The notes under the pieces were generated by a model. It was not told the DNA's origin. It searched no databases and saw nothing but the letters and a program-made list of their open reading frames with translations. Position numbers and translations under genes: made by a program. This document shows, piece by piece, positions 23,142 to 42,922 of a stretch of DNA of 64,000 bases. The DNA comes from an uncultured Verrucomicrobiales bacterium (GTDB lineage: Bacteria; Verrucomicrobiota; Verrucomicrobiia; Verrucomicrobiales; Akkermansiaceae): positions 9,374 through 73,373 of the forward strand of contig CALBVY010000039.1 in the NCBI GenBank assembly GCA_937969495.1. The letters are read 5' to 3'. Every line of letters starts with the position of its first letter. Position 1 is the stretch's first letter.

Positions 23142-23477
23142 CTATACAGAGAGCATGAGCTTACCCTCAACTTCCTTAATGGGGAAGGTCTGCAAGGAAT
23201 AATTAGGATCGGTTAGGCAAATGCCTGTTTCCAGACTGTAATGATGTTTATGCAGAGGACAAGCCACATAGGGGATACCATTTTCATCACCTACAATACC
23301 ACGTGAGAGCACCATGCGCTGGTTGATCGGGTTATAGTTTTGCACCGCGTACCATTTACCATCTGTGGGTAAGTTAAATACGGCAATCTGAAGATCATTC
23401 ACTTTGACACAGGTGCCTAAGTTAAGTGGGAAGTCCTTGCAGTCTCCTATGCAAGTCCATGTAGATTCTGTGATCAT
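23142..23477 (-). CDS. nirD: Nitrite reductase small subunit (Rieske-like)
   Basis: QIAVF, LSRGIVGD, VACPLHK; directly follows nirB. Confidence 0.92.
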   Translation of the reverse strand: MITESTWTCIGDCKDFPLNLGTCVKVNDLQIAVFNLPTDGKWYAVQNYNPINQRMVLSRGIVGDENGIPYVACPLHKHHYSLETGICLTDPNYSLQTFPIKEVEGKLMLSV

Positions 23478-23506: not shown

Positions 23507-26029
23507 CTAGGTCTTTGCGAGGGCATCCTCGTCAGCTGTTTCATTAAGTTTGGCTGGGCAGATTTGGTCACGCACTTTAACAAACTCAACGGTATCATCT
23601 ACATCATCACTGTTTGCAAATGCTTTAAATCGTTTGAGTTTCTGTGGATCGTTAATGGCGTTTGCCCATTCACATTCGTAGGTGTTAATGAGGTGCTGCA
23701 TCTGTGCTTCAAGCTCTTCGGCTATTCCCAGTGAATCGTTGATGACAACGTCTTGTAAGTGCTCTAGGCCTCCTTCAAGCTTGGTCATCCACGTCGATGT
23801 GCGCTCGAGGCGATCAGCCGTCTTAATGTAATACATGAGAAACCGATCAATATACTTGATAAGCGTCTCACGATCAATGTCTGTGGCAAAGAGGTCTGCA
23901 TGGCGTGGTGTGAGGCCGCCATTACCACAAACGTAGAGATTCCAGCCTTTTTCTGTAGCGATGATACCAAAGTCCTTTGAACGGGCTTCCGCACACTCTC
24001 GGGCGCAGCCGGATACCGCGCTCTTGAGCTTATGAGGTGAGCGAATACCACGGTAACGTTTTTCAATATCGATGGCGAGGGTGGTAGAGTCCTGCACACC
24101 AAAGCGGCACCACGTGGAGCCAACGCAGGATTTCACAGTGCGTAGCGCCTTACCATAAGCATGGCCAGACTCAAAGCCAGCATCGATGAGCTCTTTCCAG
24201 ATGAGAGGGAGCTGATGCGCGCGCGCTCCTAACAAGTCAATCCGCTGTCCCCCGGTGAGCTTCATGTAGAGATTGTATTTTTTAGCCACCTCCCCGATGA
24301 CGATGAGCTTGTCCGGAGTGATTTCCCCCCCTGGGATACGTGGGATCACGGAGTAGGTGCCGTCTTGTTGAATATTAGCTAGAAATGCATCATTGGTATC
24401 TTGGAGGGGCGCGTTCTCTAAGATCGGTTTATTCCAAGTAGAGGCGAGAATGGAGCCTACGGCAGGTTTACAAATCTCACAGCCTAAGCCGGTACCGTGT
24501 TTTTTAATCAGCTCATCAAATGTCTGAATCCCTGTTGACCTAACAATTTGATAGAGATCTTGTCGTGAATGATCAAAGTGCTCACAGATGCGGTTACTTA
24601 CCACTACGCCGTTTTCCTTCATCCGTGCTTTAAAGATGTCAGTCATCAGAGGCACACAGCCACCGCAGCCTGTACCTGCTTTAGTACAGGCTTTAAGTTC
24701 TCCTATGGTGCTGCAGCCATCATCAATGGCCGAGCAAATGGTGCCTTTAGAGACGGCTTCACAGGAGCAGATCTGCGCACTGTCTGGGATGTCACCTGCG
24801 CCCATAGCAGGGGCGCCATCACTGGCTGGGAGAATCAGTTGAATAGGCTCTGGCGGGAGTACCATTTCATTTTGATACATCTGTAAGAGGCCCCCATAGG
24901 CAGAGGCATCACCCACGAGGATACCGCCGAGGAGTTTTTTACCATCTTCTGAGATGACGATTTTTTTAAAGAGTTTAGCGTGTGGATCATTAATAACGAT
25001 CTCACGGGCATTAGATCCCTCAGGTGCTTCAATAGCTCCAAAGCTTGCTACATCAGTGCCGATGAGTTTGAGCTTGGTAGACATGTCAGACCCTTCAAAA
25101 CTGGCCTCTTTTCCTAACAAAAGATCAGAAACAGTATCTGCCATCTGATAACCAGGGGCAACAAGTCCATAGATCATACCGTTGTAGAGCGCGCACTCAC
25201 CAATGGCAAAAATATCGGGGTCACTGGTGAGCATGTAGCTGTCTACATCAATGCCGCCACGTTCGCCGATATTGAGGCCAGCTTCTTTTGCCAGCTCGTC
25301 ACGAGGGCGGATACCCGCGGAGACGATGATCATATCCACCTCTAACTGAGTGTCATCTGAAAATTCCATGGCGGTTACAGCACCTTCTCCAGCGATATTT
25401 TTAGTGGCTTTATTAAGGTGCACACTAATATCACGCTCTTCGATGATGTCTTTAAGGAGGAGTCCAGCAGCTGTATCAAGCTGCCGCGGCATCAGTCTGG
25501 GGGCAAATTCAACAACGTGAGTTTTCATCCCAAGATCTTGTGCTGCTTTTGCCGCCTCAAGTCCTAATAGACCACCTCCGATAATGGCACAGGTTTTACT
25601 TTTCTGAGCATAAGCTTTAATGTCATCAAGATCTTCAATTGTGCGGTAAACAAACACACCCTCTTTTTCTATCCCTGGAACTGGAGGGACAAAAGCGGAT
25701 GAGCCAGTAGCCATCACCAGTTTATCGTAAGGCACTTTTTTACCAGATGCCGTAGTGACCGTTTTATTCTCGCGGTCAATGCTGATGGCTTTTTCATTAA
25801 TGTGGAGCTCCACGCCATTTTCTTCATACCACTCGAACTTAGCCATGGCCAGATCCTCAGCGGCTTTACCAGAAAAATATTCTGATAGATGAACGCGATC
25901 GTATGCTGGCCGAGGTTCTTCGCAGAATGTGATAATCTGGTAGCGTTGATCAGTGTCTTTGGCCACTAGGCGCTCACAGAACTTGTAGCCGACCATGCCG
26001 TTGCCGATGACGATAACTCTTTGTTTCAT
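23507..26029 (-). CDS. nirB: NADH-dependent siroheme nitrite reductase large subunit
   Basis: FAD motif GNGMVG, GGGLLGLEAA, two BFD-like Fe-S regions (CSC...CGGC, CEH...CEIC), VKSCVGSTWC and SGCARECA siroheme/4Fe-4S ligands. Confidence 0.97.
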   Translation of the reverse strand: MKQRVIVIGNGMVGYKFCERLVAKDTDQRYQIITFCEEPRPAYDRVHLSEYFSGKAAEDLAMAKFEWYEENGVELHINEKAISIDRENKTVTTASGKKVPYDKLVMATGSSAFVPPVPGIEKEGVFVYRTIEDLDDIKAYAQKSKTCAIIGGGLLGLEAAKAAQDLGMKTHVVEFAPRLMPRQLDTAAGLLLKDIIEERDISVHLNKATKNIAGEGAVTAMEFSDDTQLEVDMIIVSAGIRPRDELAKEAGLNIGERGGIDVDSYMLTSDPDIFAIGECALYNGMIYGLVAPGYQMADTVSDLLLGKEASFEGSDMSTKLKLIGTDVASFGAIEAPEGSNAREIVINDPHAKLFKKIVISEDGKKLLGGILVGDASAYGGLLQMYQNEMVLPPEPIQLILPASDGAPAMGAGDIPDSAQICSCEAVSKGTICSAIDDGCSTIGELKACTKAGTGCGGCVPLMTDIFKARMKENGVVVSNRICEHFDHSRQDLYQIVRSTGIQTFDELIKKHGTGLGCEICKPAVGSILASTWNKPILENAPLQDTNDAFLANIQQDGTYSVIPRIPGGEITPDKLIVIGEVAKKYNLYMKLTGGQRIDLLGARAHQLPLIWKELIDAGFESGHAYGKALRTVKSCVGSTWCRFGVQDSTTLAIDIEKRYRGIRSPHKLKSAVSGCARECAEARSKDFGIIATEKGWNLYVCGNGGLTPRHADLFATDIDRETLIKYIDRFLMYYIKTADRLERTSTWMTKLEGGLEHLQDVVINDSLGIAEELEAQMQHLINTYECEWANAINDPQKLKRFKAFANSDDVDDTVEFVKVRDQICPAKLNETADEDALAKT

Positions 26030-26064: not shown

Positions 26065-26080
26065 AGCATGAGTTGTGCCA
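26065..26080 (-). promoter_or_regulatory. sigma54 (-24/-12) promoter of nirBD: TGGCACAACTCATGCT
   Basis: Exact GG-N10-GC spacing and TGGCAC -24 box, 35 nt upstream of the nirB ATG. Confidence 0.7.
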
Positions 26081-26094
26081 TGTGGGGCACCGAT

Positions 26095-26133
26095 CCATGA
26101 AGCTGACTCATGGTTTTGATGAGCTCAGATGAT
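26095..26133. promoter_or_regulatory. Tandem LysR-type boxes (CCATGA-N7-TCATGG at 26095-26113; ATGA-N7-TGAT at 26119-26133)
   Basis: T-N11-A dyads whose ATGA half-sites start 22 bp apart, just upstream of the nirB sigma54 promoter. Confidence 0.5.
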
Positions 26134-26154: not shown

Positions 26155-27066
26155 TTAATGGCTGACTGCTGCACCAAGCTGAGTGCGGCAGATCTCGATG
26201 AAGTTTTGCTCGGGTAGAGAAAAAGACTTATTGTTATGCGAATAAATACCCCATTGGCGTCTAGGGGGTGGAGAGGAAATAGAATGCTCAACCAGTGAGC
26301 CATCGGCTATTTCCTTAGCGGCTACCCAGCGGGGAATGATACCCACGCCCATACCCAGCTTGGTCATTTCCTTAATCGCCTCCATATTTCCCAGTGTGAG
26401 TGGATGGTGATGCTGGATGACATGTTCATTAAAGTGGCGGCTGACCAGACGTTTCGTTTCACTCTTTGCACAGTAGGTAATAAGCCTGATATTAGACAGT
26501 TCCTTACGTTCCTGGGGTGCTTGTTGGGTCCATGGATGATCCTTCGGGGTGATGAAGCAGAGGCTATCTTCTGCTAGTGGAGTAAAAATATACTTCTGAT
26601 CATGGGGGGTCATCTGCAGTCCAAATGCTAGATCAAGCTGGCCAGATTTGATTTGATCTAGCACATCTGCGGTGTCCCCGATGTTAACTGAGATTTCACA
26701 CTTGGGGTGCTCCTTGTAAAAAGCCTTTAACACCTGAGGCAGAATGAGGTGACAGATGGAGTCTGGAGCGCCAATGTGAATGGCCGAGTAGCCCCACTGC
26801 TTGAGTGTATCTAGCTTTGTAAGACTGGTTTCTAACTCCTTCACCACCCGCTTAGCATGGTGGAGGAAAACTTCACCGTATGGGGTGAGAATGATGTGTT
26901 TCCCCATGCGCTCAATCAATTTACAATCAAGCTGTTTTTCCAGTGATTTGATCGAGTGACTCACTGCTGATTGTGTGATGAAGCATTGCTTCGCTGCCGC
27001 CGTAAATGAGCGCGTATCTTCAAGGGCAATAAAGATATTAAGCTGGCGGATGTCAGGTAGATTCAT
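26155..27066 (-). CDS. LysR family transcriptional regulator
   Basis: HTH SFTAAAKQCFITQSAVSHSIKSLE, LTPYG, C-terminal substrate-binding domain. Confidence 0.95.
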   Translation of the reverse strand: MNLPDIRQLNIFIALEDTRSFTAAAKQCFITQSAVSHSIKSLEKQLDCKLIERMGKHIILTPYGEVFLHHAKRVVKELETSLTKLDTLKQWGYSAIHIGAPDSICHLILPQVLKAFYKEHPKCEISVNIGDTADVLDQIKSGQLDLAFGLQMTPHDQKYIFTPLAEDSLCFITPKDHPWTQQAPQERKELSNIRLITYCAKSETKRLVSRHFNEHVIQHHHPLTLGNMEAIKEMTKLGMGVGIIPRWVAAKEIADGSLVEHSISSPPPRRQWGIYSHNNKSFSLPEQNFIEICRTQLGAAVSH

Positions 27067-27179
27067 GAATAAGAAATGGAGTAAGACCTAATGTATCATC
27101 AGCATGTATCGTACCATGTTCTCTGGATTAATAAGGTTCATGCTATTAATGAGTCTAGATGTCACCGTAGGGAAATGGT

Positions 27180-27195
27180 TGGCATACCAGATGCT
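27180..27195 (+). promoter_or_regulatory. sigma54 (-24/-12) promoter of the ferredoxin-DmsC/nitrate reductase operon: TGGCATACCAGATGCT
   Basis: Exact GG-N10-GC spacing; same ATGCT -12 variant as the nirB promoter. Confidence 0.65.
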
Positions 27196-27206: not shown

Positions 27207-28898
27207 ATGTCTTTGACTGGCTCTTCTTTGCTGGAACCTGAAGGTGTGGATCAATCCTCGCCTCAGAGTTCTGTGCCTCCGTTGGAACAGGTTAATCTCA
27301 TTGATCAAATGCTCAAGGAGCAAGGGCAAATGTCTGCCGTAGAGCGCTTTAGCCAAAAGCATACATCTACGCAGGGCCATATGCAGCGAAGTTATTACGA
27401 GGATCTCATTCCTATTCGTAAACCATCAACTGGAGAACAGTATGCCTTTGAGGTAGATCTCGATAAATGCACTGGCTGCAAAGCCTGCGTCGTAGCGTGT
27501 CATAGTCTGAATGGCCTTCATGAAAATGAAAGCTGGAGAGATATTGGCTCCATTCGCGGTGTTTCCGATGGCGTGGTCGAGCAGCAGACCGTTACCTCGG
27601 CATGCCATCATTGTGCTGATCCAGCGTGTTTAAACGGCTGCCCAGTGGGCGCGTATGAAAAGGAAACAGACACCGGTATTGTCCGGCATCTCGATGATCA
27701 GTGTATCGGGTGCCAATATTGCTCATTAAAGTGTCCTTATGATGTACCAAAGTATGATAAGGCGCTAGGGATTGTTAGAAAATGTGATATGTGCCACGAG
27801 CGCCTAGCCGAGGGTGAGGCACCTGCCTGCGTGCAGGCTTGCCCTAATGGAGCGATTAAAATTACGCTGACGGATACTGCCACAGTGAATGCTGCTGCTA
27901 AGCCAGGGCGGAGTATTTTACCCGGAGCATTCCGCTCAGATTATACAAAACCCACCACAACATTCCGTAGCAGCCGTAAGCTGACAGACTCCATGAAAGC
28001 GAGCGATGAGCACGAGCTAACCCCTGCGCACGCGCATACCCCTCTGGTATGGATGCTCACTTTGACACAGGTGGCGGTGGGAATCTCCCTTGCTGATTTA
28101 CTAGTTTCTACTGTCTCAGCAGCATGGATGCAGACGCTTAAAGTGCCTCTCAGTATAGCCGCTATCGTGATAGGCAATATCGGCTTAATCGCCAGTTTCC
28201 TTCACCTAGGGAGCCCTAAGGGTGCGTGGAGAATTTTTCTAGGGCTTAAAAAATCATGGCTTAGCCGGGAGATTGTGATGTTTAGTGCCTGGATGCCTGC
28301 ACTGATGACTTACACGGCACTCACTGGGTTTCCTCAGTTATTTGAGTGGTTACCAGATGAGCTAACGGCAACAGCATTGTGGGCCACCGTGTTATTAGGC
28401 CTGTTGAGTGTCTATTGCTCGATTATGGTTTATGTAGATACTCAGAGAGCATTTTGGTCGATAAATAAGACTGCTGGGCGCTTTGTGGGCACGATGATCT
28501 TAGGTGGATTTGCAGGTCTACTACTTACAGAAATGGTGGTTTATGGTGCTGTGAGTATGGTGGCTCTTGGTGGATTTATCTTAGGGGCTCTCATTAAAGT
28601 AGTTACAGAGGTTTCTCTGCTGTTACCGGCTCGATCTGATACATGGAGTTTTGCCAAGAAAAGTGCCCTTTTGCAGCTTCGCCCATTGGGTCAGGTACTG
28701 AAGCTTCGCTGGATTTTGTTAGGAATTGCGATGATAGCTGGCATATTGGCACTCTTCATGCCCTCTGCGGGTTTTTTATTAGGAAGCATTGCATTTTTAG
28801 CACTACTGGCAGGTGAGTGGATGGAAAGAAGTTTGTTTTTTCAAGCAGTGGTGACATTAAAGATGCCGGGTGAAATAGCAGCACCCACGCACGATTAG
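27207..28898 (+). CDS. Fusion of DmsB/NrfC-type 4x[4Fe-4S] ferredoxin and DmsC/YnfH-type membrane anchor
   Basis: [37 protein letters not shown]...PACVQACP, followed by about 8 TM helices with HLGSP and SWLSREI. Confidence 0.88.
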
Positions 28899-28908
28899 GA
28901 GATCTAGA

Positions 28909-31149
28909 ATGGCAACTAAACAAGTAACTCTCAAAAAGCTTATCCCCCCTATCCGACAGTGGGAGGGACCTAAGACACAACGCCTCGTGCGAACACCTGG
29001 TGACTTTGGTCTAGGCCAAGTACCTGTCGAGATGAAGCCGGATGCTACCACCAATGTGATTTGTGGATTTTGCTCCACCGGCTGTGGCCTTAACATCCAC
29101 ATGAAAGACGGACAAGCAGTAAGCCTAACGCCTACTACAGATTACCCCGTAAACATGGGGATGGCCTGCCCGAAAGGATGGGAAGCGCTGACACCTCTCC
29201 AAGCAAATGACCGCGCTACCACACCCATGATCCGGGAGCAGCGCGGGGGCAAGCTAGTGGCTACCGATTGGCACAACGCTCTTACTGAGTTTACTACACG
29301 TTTTAAAAGAGTCCAAAAAGAGCATGGCAAGGAATCCGTGGCCTTTATCAGCACAGGACAGATCGTTACTGAGGAAATGGCCTATCTAGGTGCGCTGGCT
29401 AAGTTTGGCATGGGGATCAAACACGGCGATGGTAATACTAGGCAGTGTATGGCTACTGCGGTAGTAGCGTATAAGCAGAGCTTTGGCTTTGATGCTCCAC
29501 CCTATACGTATCAAGATTTTGAGGAATCAGATGTCATCGTGCTAGTGGGATCCAATCTTTGTATCGCACATCCTATTATGTGGCAGCGTGTGGAGAGAAA
29601 TCAAAACAACCCAGAGATTATCGTAATCGATCCACGCAAGACTGAAACCGCGGTGGCGGCTACCCAACATTACCCCATCACACCCAAAAGTGATCTCGTG
29701 TTTTTCTATGGACTAGCAAAAATTTTGTTAGAAAAAAACTATGTCGATGAGGCATTTCTCGAAGCTCACTGTGAAGGGTATCAGGAATTCTATGAGCATA
29801 TTCAAAAGTTTACCCTAGATGAGGTGGAACAGTGCAGTGGTATTACTCCTGAGCAGATGGAGTATCTCGCTGAAACGATCGGTAATGGTCAACGTGTTTC
29901 TTTCTGGTGGACGATGGGGATCAATCAAGGTCACGAGGCAGTGAGAACGGCACAAGCGATTATTAATATTGCCCTAATGACCGGCAATATAGGTAGACCT
30001 GGCACAGGGGCGAACTCGATCACTGGTCAATGTAATGCGATGGGTTCTCGTTTATTTAGTAATACCACAGGTTTGTTAGGAGGGCATGATTTTGCGAATG
30101 CGCAAGACAGGGAGAAGGTAGCTGATATCTTAGATATCGATGTATCACTTATTCCAGATGCTCCGAGTATGGCCTATGATCAAATCGTTAACGGCATCCA
30201 TGATGGAAAAATCAAAGGTCTATGGGTGATTGCCACCAATGGTGCGCATTCGTGGATTCACCAAGATCGCTACAAGGAGGCGATGGAGAAGCTCGATTAC
30301 TTAGTGGTGCAAGATATGTACACCACCACAGAAACTGTGGAATATGCAGATCTACTACTGCCGGCGGCTGGCTGGGCGGAGAAAGATGGCACATTCATTA
30401 ACTCAGAACGCAGAGTGGGCTTAGTTAAAAAAGTCGCCAAGGCTCCTGGAGATGCGCTTTCTGATTTTAATATTTTCCGTCTGATTACGGATTACTGGGG
30501 ATGTAGAGACGCATTTGCCAGTTGGACATCACCGGAAAAAGTTTTCCAACTTCTCACCAAGCTAAGTGAAGGTCAGCCGTGTGATATATCAGGGATAAAA
30601 AACTATCAGCAGATCGATGCTCAAGGTGGTATTCAGTGGCCATGTTTACCTCAAGATGTGGCAGGGCTAAATAAGGATAATCAACGACGCTTATTTGGCG
30701 ATGGCCGCTTTTATCACACCAATCAACGCGCGAAATTTATCTTTGCAGATCCACAACAAGTTGCTGAGCCAACAGATAAAGACTTCTCCATGATTCTCCT
30801 AACAGGAAGAGGAAGCTCAGCTCAGTGGCACACACAGACACGGACCAAAAAATCCGCCGTACTAAGGAAGCTCTATCCACAATCAATCTATGTGGAGATT
30901 CACCCAGATGATGCTGACGATTTAGGAATTAAGCCCAATGATCTAGTGCTGGTGAAGTCACGCCGTGCTGGTGTCACAGCCACCGCACTGGTAACACCCA
31001 CGGTACAGAGAGGTCAGCTATTTATGCCCATGCATTATGCAAAGGCAAACCAGCTGACGATGGGCTCATTTGACCCTTACTCACGACAGCCGAGTTATAA
31101 ATTCTGTGCTGTGGCGGTGATGTCTGCGGTAAATACGAGCCCCAGCTGA
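28909..31149 (+). CDS. Molybdopterin oxidoreductase, NasA/NarB-like nitrate reductase catalytic subunit
   Basis: CGFCSTGC...CPKG Fe-S motif, RQCMATA (Cys Mo ligand), [24 protein letters not shown]. No twin-arginine signal. Adjacent to nirBD. Confidence 0.85.
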
Positions 31150-33780: not shown

Positions 33781-35027
33781 CAGGGTCATCCAGCTAGGGA
33801 GAGGAGATGGTTCCTGTAATCATCATCGGCCATTGCCTTCATCTGCTTCATGGGTAAAGATTTGTTAATGGTTTTATCCAATTTCAGTATGTTCTGAGCT
33901 AGTCGTCTCAACACGGCAAAATTGCGGGCTGCGTTTTTCACCCTCACTTGTGAATGGTCTTCGCGATACAGAGTGTCTAAAACCCAGTGGCAACCATTTT
34001 CAATACTCCAGTGCTGCCGTACCAAGCTTTGAAAAGTTTCAGCGCACCCATCCAAGCTGCTGATATAGAATCTCTTCTGCTTGCTGGTTTTCATGCTACT
34101 TAAACAGTAAGTCTCGGATTCGATCATGATCAGGCATTGAAGCCCGTTCCATTTTTTGCGAACCGAGCGTGACATCCAGTCAAGCTCGTTAGTGACAGCT
34201 ACTCGCCGTGTACAAACTCGACCATTGGCTTTTTCTGTTTGCTCACAAAGGCTCCAAGCCTTGCTTTTTTCCTGGGCCACCTGCGTGGTTGCAAAATGAA
34301 ACTGGTCAATAGCCTCATTGTGCAATGTCCCTTGATTGCGCTTGAGAGCCATAAGGTAGTCAGCTCCCTTGTCCTTCACTTTTTTTGCGATTGCTGTCTG
34401 GGTACCCATGGCATCCACGGAAATGACATGACCTTTGATCTCTAGCTGCTCAAGAAGAAGTGGAATGGCTGGGATCTCATTACTTTTTTTCTGCACAAAT
34501 TCCACAGCAAGTGTCACTCCTGTGTCAGCAGCCCAGGCACTCAGGCAATGCTCCTGTTCCGAACTGGACTTCCCACTACCTCTGATCGTTTTGCCATCGA
34601 TAGCTATGAGTTGTTTTGCTAACTCAGGGTGAAGATCCCTGATGTGTTCAACCACGCATTTGCTGAACTGCTGGGGATCCATGAGGGAAAACAGGTTAAT
34701 GAGAGTCTGCTTAACCGGGATACCATTGGGCAATTTGATCCATTTTTTTAACCACCGTTCATGAACATGGGCAAACTCAACAATCCCTGAAAAGGATTGA
34801 ACCCCGCAGACCAACGCGCTGACAGCAATAAACAAAATCTCCCCAAAGTAGTGTTTTTTGTTCCCTCCGAGACGAGGATCTTCGATGACGATGAATCGTT
34901 CAAAACCATTGGGTAAACCTCCCGAGTAGTCATTTTTATTTGGATTTCTGGGCATCCAGAAATTATAAGGCGCCTAACAAAAAGTACAACTCTAAATTGT
35001 CAATATTTCCCTAGCTGGATGACCCTG
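33781..35027 (-). mobile_element. ISAs1 family insertion sequence, 1247 bp
   Basis: Perfect 20-bp terminal IRs CAGGGTCATCCAGCTAGGGA (33781-33800) and its complement (35008-35027); 10-bp TSD GTAGCCATTT at 33771-33780 and 35028-35037. Confidence 0.95.
33786..34955 (-). CDS. ISAs1 family DDE transposase
   Basis: EDPR, IAIDGKT, KSNEI.A, VDAMGTQ, LKRNQ, RQHWSIEN..HWVLD..YRED; stop codon lies inside the IR. Confidence 0.96.
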   Translation of the reverse strand: MPRNPNKNDYSGGLPNGFERFIVIEDPRLGGNKKHYFGEILFIAVSALVCGVQSFSGIVEFAHVHERWLKKWIKLPNGIPVKQTLINLFSLMDPQQFSKCVVEHIRDLHPELAKQLIAIDGKTIRGSGKSSSEQEHCLSAWAADTGVTLAVEFVQKKSNEIPAIPLLLEQLEIKGHVISVDAMGTQTAIAKKVKDKGADYLMALKRNQGTLHNEAIDQFHFATTQVAQEKSKAWSLCEQTEKANGRVCTRRVAVTNELDWMSRSVRKKWNGLQCLIMIESETYCLSSMKTSKQKRFYISSLDGCAETFQSLVRQHWSIENGCHWVLDTLYREDHSQVRVKNAARNFAVLRRLAQNILKLDKTINKSLPMKQMKAMADDDYRNHLLSLAG

Positions 35028-39332: not shown

Positions 39333-40502
39333 TTATCTTTGATAAATTGGAAGAATCTTCATGCAAGGTGTAAGAGCTATGATTGCTAGAGAAGTGGAGT
39401 AAGCTGCCCCATATGGTGCAGCAGAACCTCTTCTGGGCCATATCCCTGTGGGATCTTGCAAAGGTAAAAGATAATTATAGCACTCTTTCATACCTGTTAC
39501 CCAGAGTTGACCGCCCATCTGGATAGAAGCCTGTGTTACATAATAACAGGTATAATACGGGTAATATCTTCTGCAGTGCGAAAGAAAAGCATTGATATTC
39601 CTTGCTGAGAATTTACTCAAATAAGCAGACGATTTTAACAAAGCTGGGTGTTTATGTTTCCCTGCAAGGGCAACACATAACGTGCCTGCCGCTGTCATAA
39701 TAAAGGAGCTCCGATCATCACTAGAAATGTAGCGAAAGCCTCCTTGAGGCGTCTGATTTCGTAATACGAAGTTTGCAATACGGTCCATTACTTTTTCAGG
39801 GACATCAAATCCAGCGTTGCGAATAGAGCGTAGTGAAGCAGCATGCCAACCTGTCACCGATACATCTCCCTCAGCTCTATCTCTCCAAGGTCGGGTGTAG
39901 CGGAAGCCTCCGTCATCTTTTGCTTCTCCTTTCCTAATGTCCCAGAGCTGGAGTGTACACTTTAGCCCTTTTTCAATACCTTGTTTAATCCGAAAAGCAC
40001 GTTGAGGCTCAGTTAATCCATAAACCTCACCGAGCATTAGCATGCAGATGGCATGACAGTATGTCTTGGCTCCTCCACCGTTAACATATAAGTCACCTCC
40101 TCTGGGTATCATGTTAATCTCTGGATAATTAAGCTCTTGCGCAGCGAATAGTCCACTTTTTTGCTGAATGGATAACACGTAATTCAATGCCCTATCAAGT
40201 TGCTTGCCATAGGGGCCTTCGCCAGGGCGGTGCCCCCGCGATAGATATGCCATAATAGCAAGGGAGGTAATAGCTGGCTTGCCGTGTCTTTGCGTTTGAA
40301 AACTACCATTTGCCTCTTGCAGTCGCGCAAGAGCCTTCAAGCCTCTGTCCACGCTATCGGTTAGTTTTTTCATCTCAGTATCAGTCAGCGCCTGAGGAAG
40401 TGGAGCAGAAGGGTCAATAAGCGAGATTTCACCTTTGGGCACCTGTCCAAAACAACACCCCAATGAGCATATAAATACAATAATGTAAGAAATAAAATTC
40501 AT
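39333..40502 (-). CDS. Prenyltransferase/squalene-oxidase-repeat (alpha/alpha barrel) secreted protein, paralog 3
   Basis: Signal peptide, LQEANGSF/QTPQGGF QW-like repeats, DGGFRY, GDVSVTGW, C-terminal LPIYQR. Confidence 0.85.
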   Translation of the reverse strand: MNFISYIIVFICSLGCCFGQVPKGEISLIDPSAPLPQALTDTEMKKLTDSVDRGLKALARLQEANGSFQTQRHGKPAITSLAIMAYLSRGHRPGEGPYGKQLDRALNYVLSIQQKSGLFAAQELNYPEINMIPRGGDLYVNGGGAKTYCHAICMLMLGEVYGLTEPQRAFRIKQGIEKGLKCTLQLWDIRKGEAKDDGGFRYTRPWRDRAEGDVSVTGWHAASLRSIRNAGFDVPEKVMDRIANFVLRNQTPQGGFRYISSDDRSSFIMTAAGTLCVALAGKHKHPALLKSSAYLSKFSARNINAFLSHCRRYYPYYTCYYVTQASIQMGGQLWVTGMKECYNYLLPLQDPTGIWPRRGSAAPYGAAYSTSLAIIALTPCMKILPIYQR

Positions 40503-40547
40503 AGATCTATTTAATGACGATTTAATCATTTATTGTTAGATAATTCA

Positions 40548-41741
40548 CTACCTTTGATAAATTGGAAGAAGTTGTAAAGGAGGCGTGAGAGAAAGAATAG
40601 CCATTGAGGTAGAATAGACTTTCCCAAATCTAGTAGTATGCCCTAGCGGCTTCCAGAAGCCAGATTGCATCTGCTTAGGCAAAAGATAACTATAACAATT
40701 TTTCATAGATTTTCTCCAGAGACGCCCACCCAGCTGCATGCTTATCTGTGTCATATAATAGCATGTGTAGTAGGGATAATATCTATTGTATTGATTAGTA
40801 AAAAACTTGGCGCTCGTTATATCAAATCTATTAAGAAACTGGCTAGATTTCTTTAGTGCTGGATGATCGTGTTTCCCTGTTAAGGTCAGACATAGAGAGC
40901 CCGCAGCGGTCATGGTAAAAGTGCTACGATATCCTGGATGAGGTAAATACCCAAAACCTCCATCAGCGTTTTGATTTCTAATAGCAAAACCTGCTAATCT
41001 ATTGGTCACTCCTTCTGGCACCTCAAAACCAGCATTAGCAATAGACCGCAAGGAAGCTGCAAACCATGAAGTCACGGAAAAATCAGATTCACCACGTATT
41101 TGTAGACTACCTTTATAAGGGCGAAAATACCGAAAGCCACCATCATCTTTAACTGATTTTTTTCTAACATTCCAAAGCTTCAGTGTGCACACCAGACCTT
41201 TCTCAATGGCTTTACGAATGCGGAACGAATTTTTAGGATCAGAAACTCCATACACTTCTCCCAACATGAGCATACATATAGGGTGGCAATACGACTTAGC
41301 GACACCTCCCACAGAATAAAGCTCCGTCAGAGATCGCCCAGTTAAGTCCGTCTCGATGAGAGCATAGTTAAAATCTTCATTAGCAAATAATCCGCTTCTT
41401 TTTTGAATAGATAGAATGTGGTTCACAGCCTTATCCAGTAGCTTCCCATAAGGGCCTTGACCTGGTTTATGTCCCCTCGAAAGAAAAGCCATGATCGCCA
41501 TGGAAGTTACCGCAGGCTTGGAATATTCAGGGTTTGCAAAACTGCCATCTGCCAATTGCAGCGTCGCAAGAGCTTTAAGTCCTCTATCTACACTAGCCGT
41601 TAGTTTTTTAATCTCTGCATCATTAAGAGCCCTAGGAAGTGGTGCAGAAGGGTCAATAAGGGGGGGGTCACCTTTGGGAATTTCTCCAAGACAACATCCT
41701 AATGAGCAGATTAATAAAATAATATGATAGATAGATTTCAT
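40548..41741 (-). CDS. Prenyltransferase/squalene-oxidase-repeat secreted protein, paralog 2
   Basis: LQLADGSF, DGGFRY, SDFSVTSW, QNADGGFGY, LPIYQR. Confidence 0.85.
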   Translation of the reverse strand: MKSIYHIILLICSLGCCLGEIPKGDPPLIDPSAPLPRALNDAEIKKLTASVDRGLKALATLQLADGSFANPEYSKPAVTSMAIMAFLSRGHKPGQGPYGKLLDKAVNHILSIQKRSGLFANEDFNYALIETDLTGRSLTELYSVGGVAKSYCHPICMLMLGEVYGVSDPKNSFRIRKAIEKGLVCTLKLWNVRKKSVKDDGGFRYFRPYKGSLQIRGESDFSVTSWFAASLRSIANAGFEVPEGVTNRLAGFAIRNQNADGGFGYLPHPGYRSTFTMTAAGSLCLTLTGKHDHPALKKSSQFLNRFDITSAKFFTNQYNRYYPYYTCYYMTQISMQLGGRLWRKSMKNCYSYLLPKQMQSGFWKPLGHTTRFGKVYSTSMAILSLTPPLQLLPIYQR

Positions 41742-41755
41742 TCCCAGGGTACTTC

Positions 41756-42922
41756 TCATCTTTGGTAAATTGGCAGGATTTGCATGGATGGAGTTAAGGC
41801 AATAATAGCCAAAGATGTGGAGTAAGCCTGCCCATAACGTGCTGAACGCTCAAAGGCCGGCCAATGACCAGAGGCCAATTGTTTTGGCAAAAGATAGTTA
41901 TAACACTCCTTCATACATTTTACCCACAAAGCTCCACCCATCTGAATAGCTGCTTGAGTCACATAATAACACGAATAGTAAGCATAGATTGTATGCCCTC
42001 CAGTTGCTTTAAAACACAGTGGTGAAGCAGCATTAAACCGATACAAATAGCGACATGCCCGCTCAAGTGAGGAATGATCATGTCTTGCTGCTAGTCCTAT
42101 GCAAAGAGTTCCCGCAGCGGTCATCACAAATGAACTTTGTCCACGAACCAAGTAACTGAAACCTCCGTCAGGGCATTGCGTCTTGACAACGTAAGCCACA
42201 ATACGGTTCATGACATTTTCTGGCACATCAAATCCAGCATTACGAATAGAACGTAGTGAGCTTACATGCCACGCTGTAACTGATAAATCAGAATCATTAC
42301 TCCCATGAAGACGGGTGTAACGAAACCCTCCATCGTTCATTGACGATTTTTTTCTAATATCCCAGAGCTCTAAGGTGAACTTAAGTCCCTTGGTGATCGC
42401 CGCTTTAACGCGGAATGTATGCTTAGGATCAGTTAAGCCATAGACCTCTCCAAGCATAAGCATACAAATGGCATGGTTATAGGTCTTGGCAGTACCGCCT
42501 GCACCACGCACGTCCGCCTCACGTATAGGAACATTAATTAAAGCAGTATTAATTTCCTGACTCGCAAAAAGTCCGCTTTTCTTTTGGGTTGTAAGCACGT
42601 AGTCCAATGCTTTATCGATCTGCTTGCCATAAGGACCTTCGCCAGGGCGGTGACCACGCGATAAATATGCCATAATCGCAAACGAAGTAATAGCTGGCTT
42701 CCCGTGATTTAGAGTGGGAAAACTACCATCTGCTAGTTGCAATTTAGAAAGTGCCCGTAGCCCTCTATCTACGCTGGTAGTTAGCTTTTGCATCTCCGCA
42801 CTAGTTAGAGCCTGAGGGAGTGGTCCGGAAGGATCCATCAGCGGAAGCTTATCTGTTGGAGCCTGTCCTAGGCAGTATCCCGATGAATAGGTTAATAAAA
42901 TAATGTAAACAAAAGTTTTCAT
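41756..42922 (-). CDS. Prenyltransferase/squalene-oxidase-repeat secreted protein, paralog 1
   Basis: LQLADGSF, DGGFRY, SDLSVTAW, QCPDGGFSY, LPIYQR; ATGA overlap with the upstream gene. Confidence 0.85.
   Translation of the reverse strand: MKTFVYIILLTYSSGYCLGQAPTDKLPLMDPSGPLPQALTSAEMQKLTTSVDRGLRALSKLQLADGSFPTLNHGKPAITSFAIMAYLSRGHRPGEGPYGKQIDKALDYVLTTQKKSGLFASQEINTALINVPIREADVRGAGGTAKTYNHAICMLMLGEVYGLTDPKHTFRVKAAITKGLKFTLELWDIRKKSSMNDGGFRYTRLHGSNDSDLSVTAWHVSSLRSIRNAGFDVPENVMNRIVAYVVKTQCPDGGFSYLVRGQSSFVMTAAGTLCIGLAARHDHSSLERACRYLYRFNAASPLCFKATGGHTIYAYYSCYYVTQAAIQMGGALWVKCMKECYNYLLPKQLASGHWPAFERSARYGQAYSTSLAIIALTPSMQILPIYQR

Follow-up and report, generated by a model that had tools for sequence, protein, structure and literature searches.

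The assimilatory nitrate reductases NasA, NasC, and NarB (Klebsiella, Paracoccus, Sinorhizobium, Bacillus, and cyanobacteria) are cytoplasmic enzymes with a Cys-ligated molybdenum-bis(pyranopterin guanine dinucleotide) (Mo-bisPGD) cofactor and the FS0 cluster, their genes lie together with those for nitrite reductase and nitrate uptake, and reviews treat them as soluble. NarGHI is a cytoplasm-facing, quinol-fed nitrate reductase, in which NarG (~1,240 aa) is Asp-ligated and works with a redox loop through the dihaem NarI, and the periplasmic NapA(B), exported by a twin-arginine translocation (Tat) signal, is quinol-fed in vivo. DmsABC of Escherichia coli joins a Tat-exported, periplasm-facing DmsA to a four-cluster iron-sulfur (Fe-S) subunit and an 8-helix anchor, and SoeABC of Allochromatium vinosum and Ruegeria pomeroyi consists of a cytoplasm-facing molybdoenzyme, an Fe-S subunit, and an NrfD/PsrC-like anchor (PMC6335251). 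Wells et al. (2020; PMC7331816) state that four-cluster and membrane-anchor subunits are absent from all members of the Nas/Nap/Aio clade. Here, we analyze a 64,000-nt stretch of DNA (the window) on contig C39 of an uncultured Verrucomicrobiales bacterium, whose genome (2.47 Mb) is 96% complete and whose closest named relatives are Oceaniferula spumae and Rubritalea. Two adjacent plus-strand open reading frames (ORFs) of the window encode a DmsB-DmsC fusion (27207-28898, 563 aa; 67% identical to that of O. spumae) and a predicted nitrate reductase (28909-31149, 746 aa). To judge by the encoded proteins, this lineage has both a four-cluster subunit and an anchor, contrary to the statement on the clade. 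The pair is probably a menaquinol-fed, non-electrogenic, cytoplasm-facing, membrane-bound two-subunit assimilatory nitrate reductase.

The fusion contains 16 Cys in four DmsB-type motifs, followed by a DmsC-family anchor. Its Pfam matches are Fer4_11 and DmsC (PF04976 over residues 278-545, 55 bits versus a cut-off of 22), residues 321-553 align to E. coli DmsC at 30% identity, and the AlphaFold model (predicted local distance difference test, pLDDT, 92.5) shows eight long helices between residues 278 and 546. The ORF coordinates, the domain matches, and the helix model all agree with the original prediction, in which a protein with four [4Fe-4S] clusters and about eight transmembrane helices preceded the catalytic gene. 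His333 and Glu355 of the fusion align with His65 and Glu87 of E. coli DmsC, which we take to be quinol-site residues. Both, together with His277, are invariant in 190/190 homologs, and His333 and Glu355 are kept also in the divergent clade II. Lys and Arg average 15.5 in the ferredoxin-side loops versus 1.2 on the far side, with the same direction in 190/190 homologs, whereas the control, E. coli DmsC, does not lean toward the ferredoxin side (4 versus 6). In addition, a Tat motif is absent from every fusion examined (190 homologs). Because of the charge bias (positive-inside rule) and the lack of a Tat motif on either subunit, we infer a cytoplasmic orientation for the Fe-S wire and the quinol site and an anchor inverted relative to DmsC. 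The conserved charged residues of the anchor are grouped at its cytoplasmic helix ends and no chain of them was seen across the membrane, which is consistent with a non-pumping anchor.

Database labels of the fusion homologs often read formate dehydrogenase or DMSO reductase subunit. A fold search with the fusion matched DmsB, FdnH, and PsrB as expected and, through the anchor, ActC and PsrC weakly, and it returned no solved structure of a fused homolog. A search for stand-alone relatives of the anchor, which yielded mostly fragments on short contigs, did not reveal the origin of the module, and no plasmid record covers at least 80% of the fusion. A shorter, inward-facing DmsB-DmsC fusion stands at L109:8439-11833 (genome G287) with an unrelated DmsA-like molybdoenzyme that has no evident Tat signal; therefore, the DmsB-DmsC module appears to be reused outside nitrate metabolism.

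The catalytic subunit comprises the domains PF04879, PF00384, and PF01568 only. Since the last of these ends at residue 734 of 746, the predicted protein has no BFD or diaphorase tail, and its first 60 residues contain no RR; the original prediction of a NasA/NarB-like subunit devoid of these features therefore stands. The missing BFD tail is not unusual by itself, as the Paenibacillus NasC-type enzyme has 705 aa. The ligands of FS0 and of molybdenum are in place (Table 1), with Met181 after the Mo-ligating Cys180; the STGQ, MGxNQ, and TGQ motifs of Nas/Nap are present, and the His and Arg of formate dehydrogenases are absent. Among NCBIfam models, the formate dehydrogenase alpha subunit scores highest (481 bits), followed by NasA (462 bits, cut-off 1000) and NasC (445 bits, cut-off 1100). 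As all three are below cut-off, the curated models, of which those for NasA and NasC are lineage-specific, do not decide the enzyme type, and the Nas/Nap-type assignment is based on the active-site residues. The best match among solved nitrate reductases is the monomeric NapA 2jim (E 1.6e-96). In a maximum-likelihood tree of 30 rows, from which cyanobacterial NarB and the clostridial and monomeric Nap references were absent and in which the E. coli NapA row was N-terminally cut, the enzymes that go with a fusion fall into a single branch (100/99), which divides into two subclades. This branch stands beside NapA and classical NasA/NarB, apart from formate dehydrogenases and Bacillus-type NasC (100/99), as would fit a nitrate reductase that constitutes a separate lineage. 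Two enzymes of the same lineage with no fusion beside them were seen at L098:7983-10058 (Cetobacterium somerae) and L089:7835-9982, the latter a second copy in genome G071, where the fusion-linked copy lies upstream of nifH-like genes. Another layout occurs at L091:6741-12811 (G168), with a membrane protein, a Bacillus-type catalytic subunit, a separate 4Fe-4S protein, a 202-aa ORF, and a major facilitator superfamily transporter.

The fusion is the constant partner of this enzyme. The reductase gene directly follows the fusion gene in 76/80 GTDB loci, the remaining four of which stop at contig edges, and the stop and start codons of the two often overlap; in the window, they are separated by 10 bp, and a Shine-Dalgarno-like AGGAG is present. 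Both genes are held by the same 22 of 251 sampled Verrucomicrobiota genomes, and a near full-length fusion occurs in ~21 of 201 sampled Planctomycetota; since the carriers include kin that are not independent, these counts are patterns and not statistics. NirA-type nitrite reductase was found in 21/24 Verrucomicrobiota carriers and NirB over cut-off in six, each carrier having one or the other, and most loci carry nitrate uptake genes. NirB was not found in 17/24 of these carriers; likewise, 14/20 planctomycete carriers, single-contig genomes included, gave no match to a CysJ-like flavoprotein, and where the planctomycete gene is present, it adjoins NirA. As each is missing from many carriers, neither NirBD nor the CysJ-like diflavin protein would be a general or obligatory donor, a claim confined to those two. 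At locus L092, the transporters, NirA, and the CysJ-like gene are unchanged, but the anchor fusion is replaced by a NasA to which diaphorase and BFD domains are fused; by its gene content, the locus is a natural swap of one for the other.

The predicted fusion-reductase complex scores 0.81 versus 0.00 for the best control, a mark reached by 58/80 solved complexes and 2/110 mismatched pairs in counts that are roughly valid here. At least 70% of contacts are the same between model runs, with a partner pLDDT of 80-83. In the model, residues 87-88 at FS0 contact fusion residues 92-96, and the interface takes in the family-specific N-terminal arms of both proteins.

Compared with classical Nas, the host enzyme shares the cytoplasmic location (no export signal), the cofactors, the motifs, and the genetic company of nitrite reductase and nitrate uptake. 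Unlike them, it belongs to a separate lineage (100/99) outside the sampled NasA/NarB and Bacillus-type NasC, and its partner is a four-cluster subunit with a membrane anchor rather than a BFD/diaphorase protein; across genomes it is the anchor fusion that is constant, while NirB and the CysJ-like protein are dispensable. The four-cluster wire and the 8-helix anchor with equivalents of His65 and Glu87 are those of DmsABC, but B and C are fused, the charge bias is reversed, and the catalytic subunit is of Nas type without a Tat signal rather than DmsA. SoeABC is alike in its inward orientation only and sets a precedent for inward-facing anchors, whereas it has three subunits, oxidizes sulfite, and belongs to another catalytic family. 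The host enzyme would resemble NarGHI in facing the cytoplasm and, presumably, in its quinol feed, but no narG match or NarI anchor was found in the host; the anchor is DmsC-type and the quinol site would lie on the catalytic side. The enzyme shares its active-site family with NapA, yet it appears cytoplasmic and lacks the Tat signal and the NapB/C/G/H partners. Searches of the 96%-complete genome gave no NarK, NarG, NapA, or NrfA. A weak PF02335 match to NrfA was rejected, as it is an 807-aa octahaem protein without CxxCK. Topology, quinol-site residues, co-occurrence, phylogeny, and the modeled complex support the proposal of a cytoplasm-facing, anchor-partnered enzyme distinct from Nar, Nap, and classical Nas, and the phylogenetic and topological checks proposed with it both gave the expected result; of its quinol feeding, the conserved His/Glu pair speaks in favor, and quinol as the donor stays an inference.

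In the proposed mechanism, nitrate would enter via the ATP-binding cassette (ABC) transporter encoded on contig C51, and menaquinol would be oxidized at the His333/Glu355 site of the inverted anchor. From there, the fused DmsB domain would relay electrons over its four [4Fe-4S] clusters to FS0 and on to the Mo center, where nitrate would be reduced to nitrite at the cytoplasmic face of the inner membrane. NirBD would then use NADH to turn nitrite into ammonium, the substrate for glutamine synthetase. As the quinol protons would be released on the side where nitrate reduction consumes them, the step would be non-electrogenic; the benefit would be that electrons traverse complex I before being spent on nitrate. 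The nitrate/nitrite couple is at +0.42 V (PMC12300631), which would make quinol thermodynamically ample as a donor. A menaquinol pool is plausible, since the host encodes MenB (over cut-off), complex I, and a cluster resembling alternative complex III; a search of its genome for the futalosine route gave nothing. In this scheme, the domains, the active-site type, the invariant quinol-site residues, the charge asymmetry, the co-occurrence of the genes, and the shared motifs come from sequence or computation and the subunit docking from the model, while topology, quinol oxidation, nitrogen regulation, and bioenergetics are interpretation.

The regulatory sequences point to nitrogen assimilation. 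The sigma-54-type -24/-12 pattern, which was first noticed by eye in the window and relaxed once three sites had been seen, has 39 matches in the host genome versus 16-25 in shuffles; 14 precede an ORF, and the sites include those before the fusion gene, nirB, nrtA, glnII (glutamine synthetase II), a PII gene, and rpoN. A looser form occurs in 11/24 LysR-divergent regions of relatives versus 8/265 control regions, and an ATGA-N7-TCAT box occurs in 8/14 such regions versus 24/272 controls. A matrix for this box was built solely from sites of other genomes, leaving start codons out; in the 2.47 Mb, it places the promoters of the porin, nrtA, fusion, and nirB genes at ranks 1, 3, 11, and 19. As the core was first noticed by eye in the window, full independence applies only to the two C51 sites. 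In five aligned genomes, the sigma-54 site and the LysR box are conserved islands. Predicted sigma-54-type promoters and a LysR-type box are thus common to the pair, to nirBD, and to the ABC nitrate transporter, which lies with the porin on C51 (molybdenum cofactor genes are on C35). The original prediction left a choice between assimilation and a sink resembling DNRA, the dissimilatory reduction of nitrate to ammonium. Because the pair shares promoter type and box with an ATP-driven nitrate transporter, the predicted regulation clearly favors assimilation, and the sink is the less favored half of that choice. The LysR gene at the locus can be likened by box and predicted role to NtcB, a LysR regulator of nitrate assimilation genes that acts on the cyanobacterial nirA operon and whose box in Anabaena is a repeated ATGC-N7-GCAT (bioRxiv 10.1101/2022.10.10.511513). 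The spacing is the same, but the host has ATGA/TCAT half-sites and promoters of sigma-54-type appearance. The predicted start site of the pair's promoter falls at the start codon, and LysR proteins normally work on sigma-70 promoters; both points temper the predicted nitrogen regulation of the pair by sigma-54 and LysR. A first scan with a four-unit box was dropped, as it was circular for nirB and the fusion promoter alone was not significant (123 genome matches at 12/16). Sigma-54-type sites stand at C4:35016, C54:1539, and C21:6200 of the host genome (G000), before dnaK, a small heat-shock-like gene, and rpoN itself, which suggests a broad sigma-54 regulon in this verrucomicrobium. A LysR-type box of rank 22 lies ~140 bp upstream of an ammonium transporter match (C36:38792), where no sigma-54 site was seen.

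We consider it unlikely that the fusion acts as a scaffold in the membrane and relays, through its Fe-S clusters, electrons from a soluble donor, be it NADPH via the CysJ-like protein, NADH via NirB/NirD, or ferredoxin/flavodoxin. The CysJ-like gene occurs in 48/80 loci, a mycobacterial nitrate reductase with a fused CysJ-like domain is a precedent, nirBD adjoins the pair in the host, and a second CysJ-like copy is kept in both the host and O. spumae, in neither of which NirA was found. Such a donor, however, leaves the invariant quinol-site His/Glu unexplained, neither NirB nor the CysJ-like flavoprotein is constant among carriers, and the orphan CysJ-like gene of the host has no sigma-54 site or LysR box upstream. 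A quinol-fed enzyme could also be mainly dissimilatory, a DNRA-like redox sink that works with NirBD at low oxygen and supports proton pumping by complex I. A quinol-oxidizing enzyme could act as a terminal sink, E. coli NirBD acts as one, and with NarG, NapA, and NrfA not found, this is the only nitrate reductase found in the genome. Yet the promoter type is shared with glnII and the PII gene as well as, together with the box, the nitrate transporter; an FNR box at the locus is not supported (best 7-8/10), NirA-type nitrite reductase prevails among the carriers, and one locus has a NasT-like ANTAR regulator, so that we hold a mainly dissimilatory role to be improbable. That the molybdoenzyme acts on another substrate (formate or another oxyanion) or in the oxidative direction is very improbable: the top NCBIfam score and an RQCM motif in place of RLCM at the Mo ligand would fit it, whereas the active-site residues, the grouping of the enzyme with NapA/NasA in the tree, the siroheme nitrite reductase in 24/24 Verrucomicrobiota carriers tested, and the uptake genes in most loci argue for nitrate.

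Several observations weigh against a quinol-fed assimilatory enzyme. The predicted topology depends on the positive-inside rule and a single periplasmic control protein, and the complex may owe its pass to memory of, or likeness to, FdnGH/PsrAB-type structures. Cyanobacterial NarB is adapted to donors of low potential, so an enzyme fed by quinol would have to be retuned. The Cetobacterium and L089 enzymes are nested in the same branch without an adjacent fusion; therefore, the catalytic type apparently can work otherwise. Since dnaK and a small heat-shock-like gene also carry sigma-54-type sites, these are not nitrogen-specific in the host and do not prove Ntr control. Finally, the host genome keeps an orphan CysJ-like protein of the nitrate-cluster type without NirA. 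This diflavin reductase (C15:36353-38062; L084:5351-7063) is at most 54% identical to the nitrate-cluster type versus 48% to the CysI-linked copy.

Even so, a quinol-fed assimilatory enzyme remains our reading, and the module, an inward-facing DmsBC-/SoeBC-type quinone module joined to a Nas-type enzyme, appears real and conserved. On balance, we lean toward regarding it as a fourth architecture of prokaryotic nitrate reductase, in which an own Nas/Nap-family lineage with a captured, inverted, fused DmsBC would serve quinol-fed assimilation under a sigma-54 and LysR regulon, usual in free-living Verrucomicrobiota and common in Planctomycetota. Its parts and the inward-facing principle (SoeABC) are already known, which limits the surprise, and the absence of any description of the pair from targeted literature searches, which left out most subscription papers, is no proof of novelty. 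If quinol-fed, the enzyme would tie nitrate assimilation in two widespread phyla to the respiratory chain and blur the split between assimilatory and respiratory enzymes. Annotation from the catalytic subunit alone would be misleading here, and the fusion offers a natural case of an inverted DmsC anchor. Cultured carriers such as O. spumae make the model directly testable.

Table 1. Positions of the genes, domains, and predicted regulatory sites in the window.
Feature	Position	Strand	Remarks
DmsB-DmsC fusion, 563 aa	27207..28898	+	Family-specific N-terminal arm, 4x[4Fe-4S] domain, 8-helix anchor
Four-cluster ferredoxin domain, residues 88-212	27468..27842	+	Each of the 16 Cys kept in at least 99.5% of 190 homologs
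DmsC-family anchor, residues 277-546	28035..28844	+	His277, His333, Glu355 invariant; positive charge on ferredoxin/quinol-site side
Mo-bisPGD nitrate reductase catalytic subunit (predicted), 746 aa	28909..31149	+	FS0 on Cys52/55/59/87; Mo bound by Cys180; Tat signal and BFD absent
Sigma-54-type -24/-12 promoter of the pair	27180..27195	+	Conserved, with nearly equal spacing across five genomes; +1 predicted roughly on the start codon
LysR-type box (ATGA-N7-TCAT family) upstream of the pair	27127..27152	.	Rank 11 in genome; matrix from other genomes
GG-N10-GC element, likely sigma-54 promoter of LysR gene	27101..27116	-	Conserved; by eye from alignment
LysR-family regulator gene	26155..27066	-	
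Four-unit LysR-type box upstream of nirB	26097..26133	.	Same architecture as Anabaena NtcB box
Sigma-54-type promoter of nirBD	26065..26080	-	
nirB, NADH-dependent siroheme nitrite reductase large subunit	23507..26029	-	TIGR02374, 1103 bits (cut-off 578)
nirD, Rieske subunit	23142..23477	-	TIGR02378, 112 bits (cut-off 75)

The nirBD genes are neighbors of the pair, as originally predicted, but they lie on the opposite strand with the LysR gene in between, and so form a separate, divergent transcription unit that is not co-transcribed with it. The layout in O. spumae is similar (nirBD-LysR-fusion-reductase), and a LysR gene was found in 24/80 related loci; some genes in GC-rich loci were missed by ORF calling, so such neighbor counts are lower bounds. 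At L001:6636-9934 and ~20 other loci, the region just upstream of the pair contains narK and a fused PP2C-phosphatase/Ser-Thr kinase gene. The window has neither at that position, and the same promoter directly abuts the fusion gene. At L006 and L007, the Rubritalea marina fusion is split into ORFs of 384 and 182 aa and the R. tangerina narK and kinase genes are split as well, by decay or sequencing error. At 31095-31149, the 3' end of the reductase gene overlaps a convergent gene for a 262-aa protein of no Pfam family by 55 bp, and the same overlap recurs in the close relatives L134 and L135. Farther downstream, a 389-aa ORF (33786-34955, minus strand) is by eye ISAs1-type transposase-like, and three tandem paralogous ORFs of ~390-400 aa (39333-42922, minus strand), beside long coiled-coil genes, resemble by eye prenyltransferase/squalene-cyclase repeat proteins.

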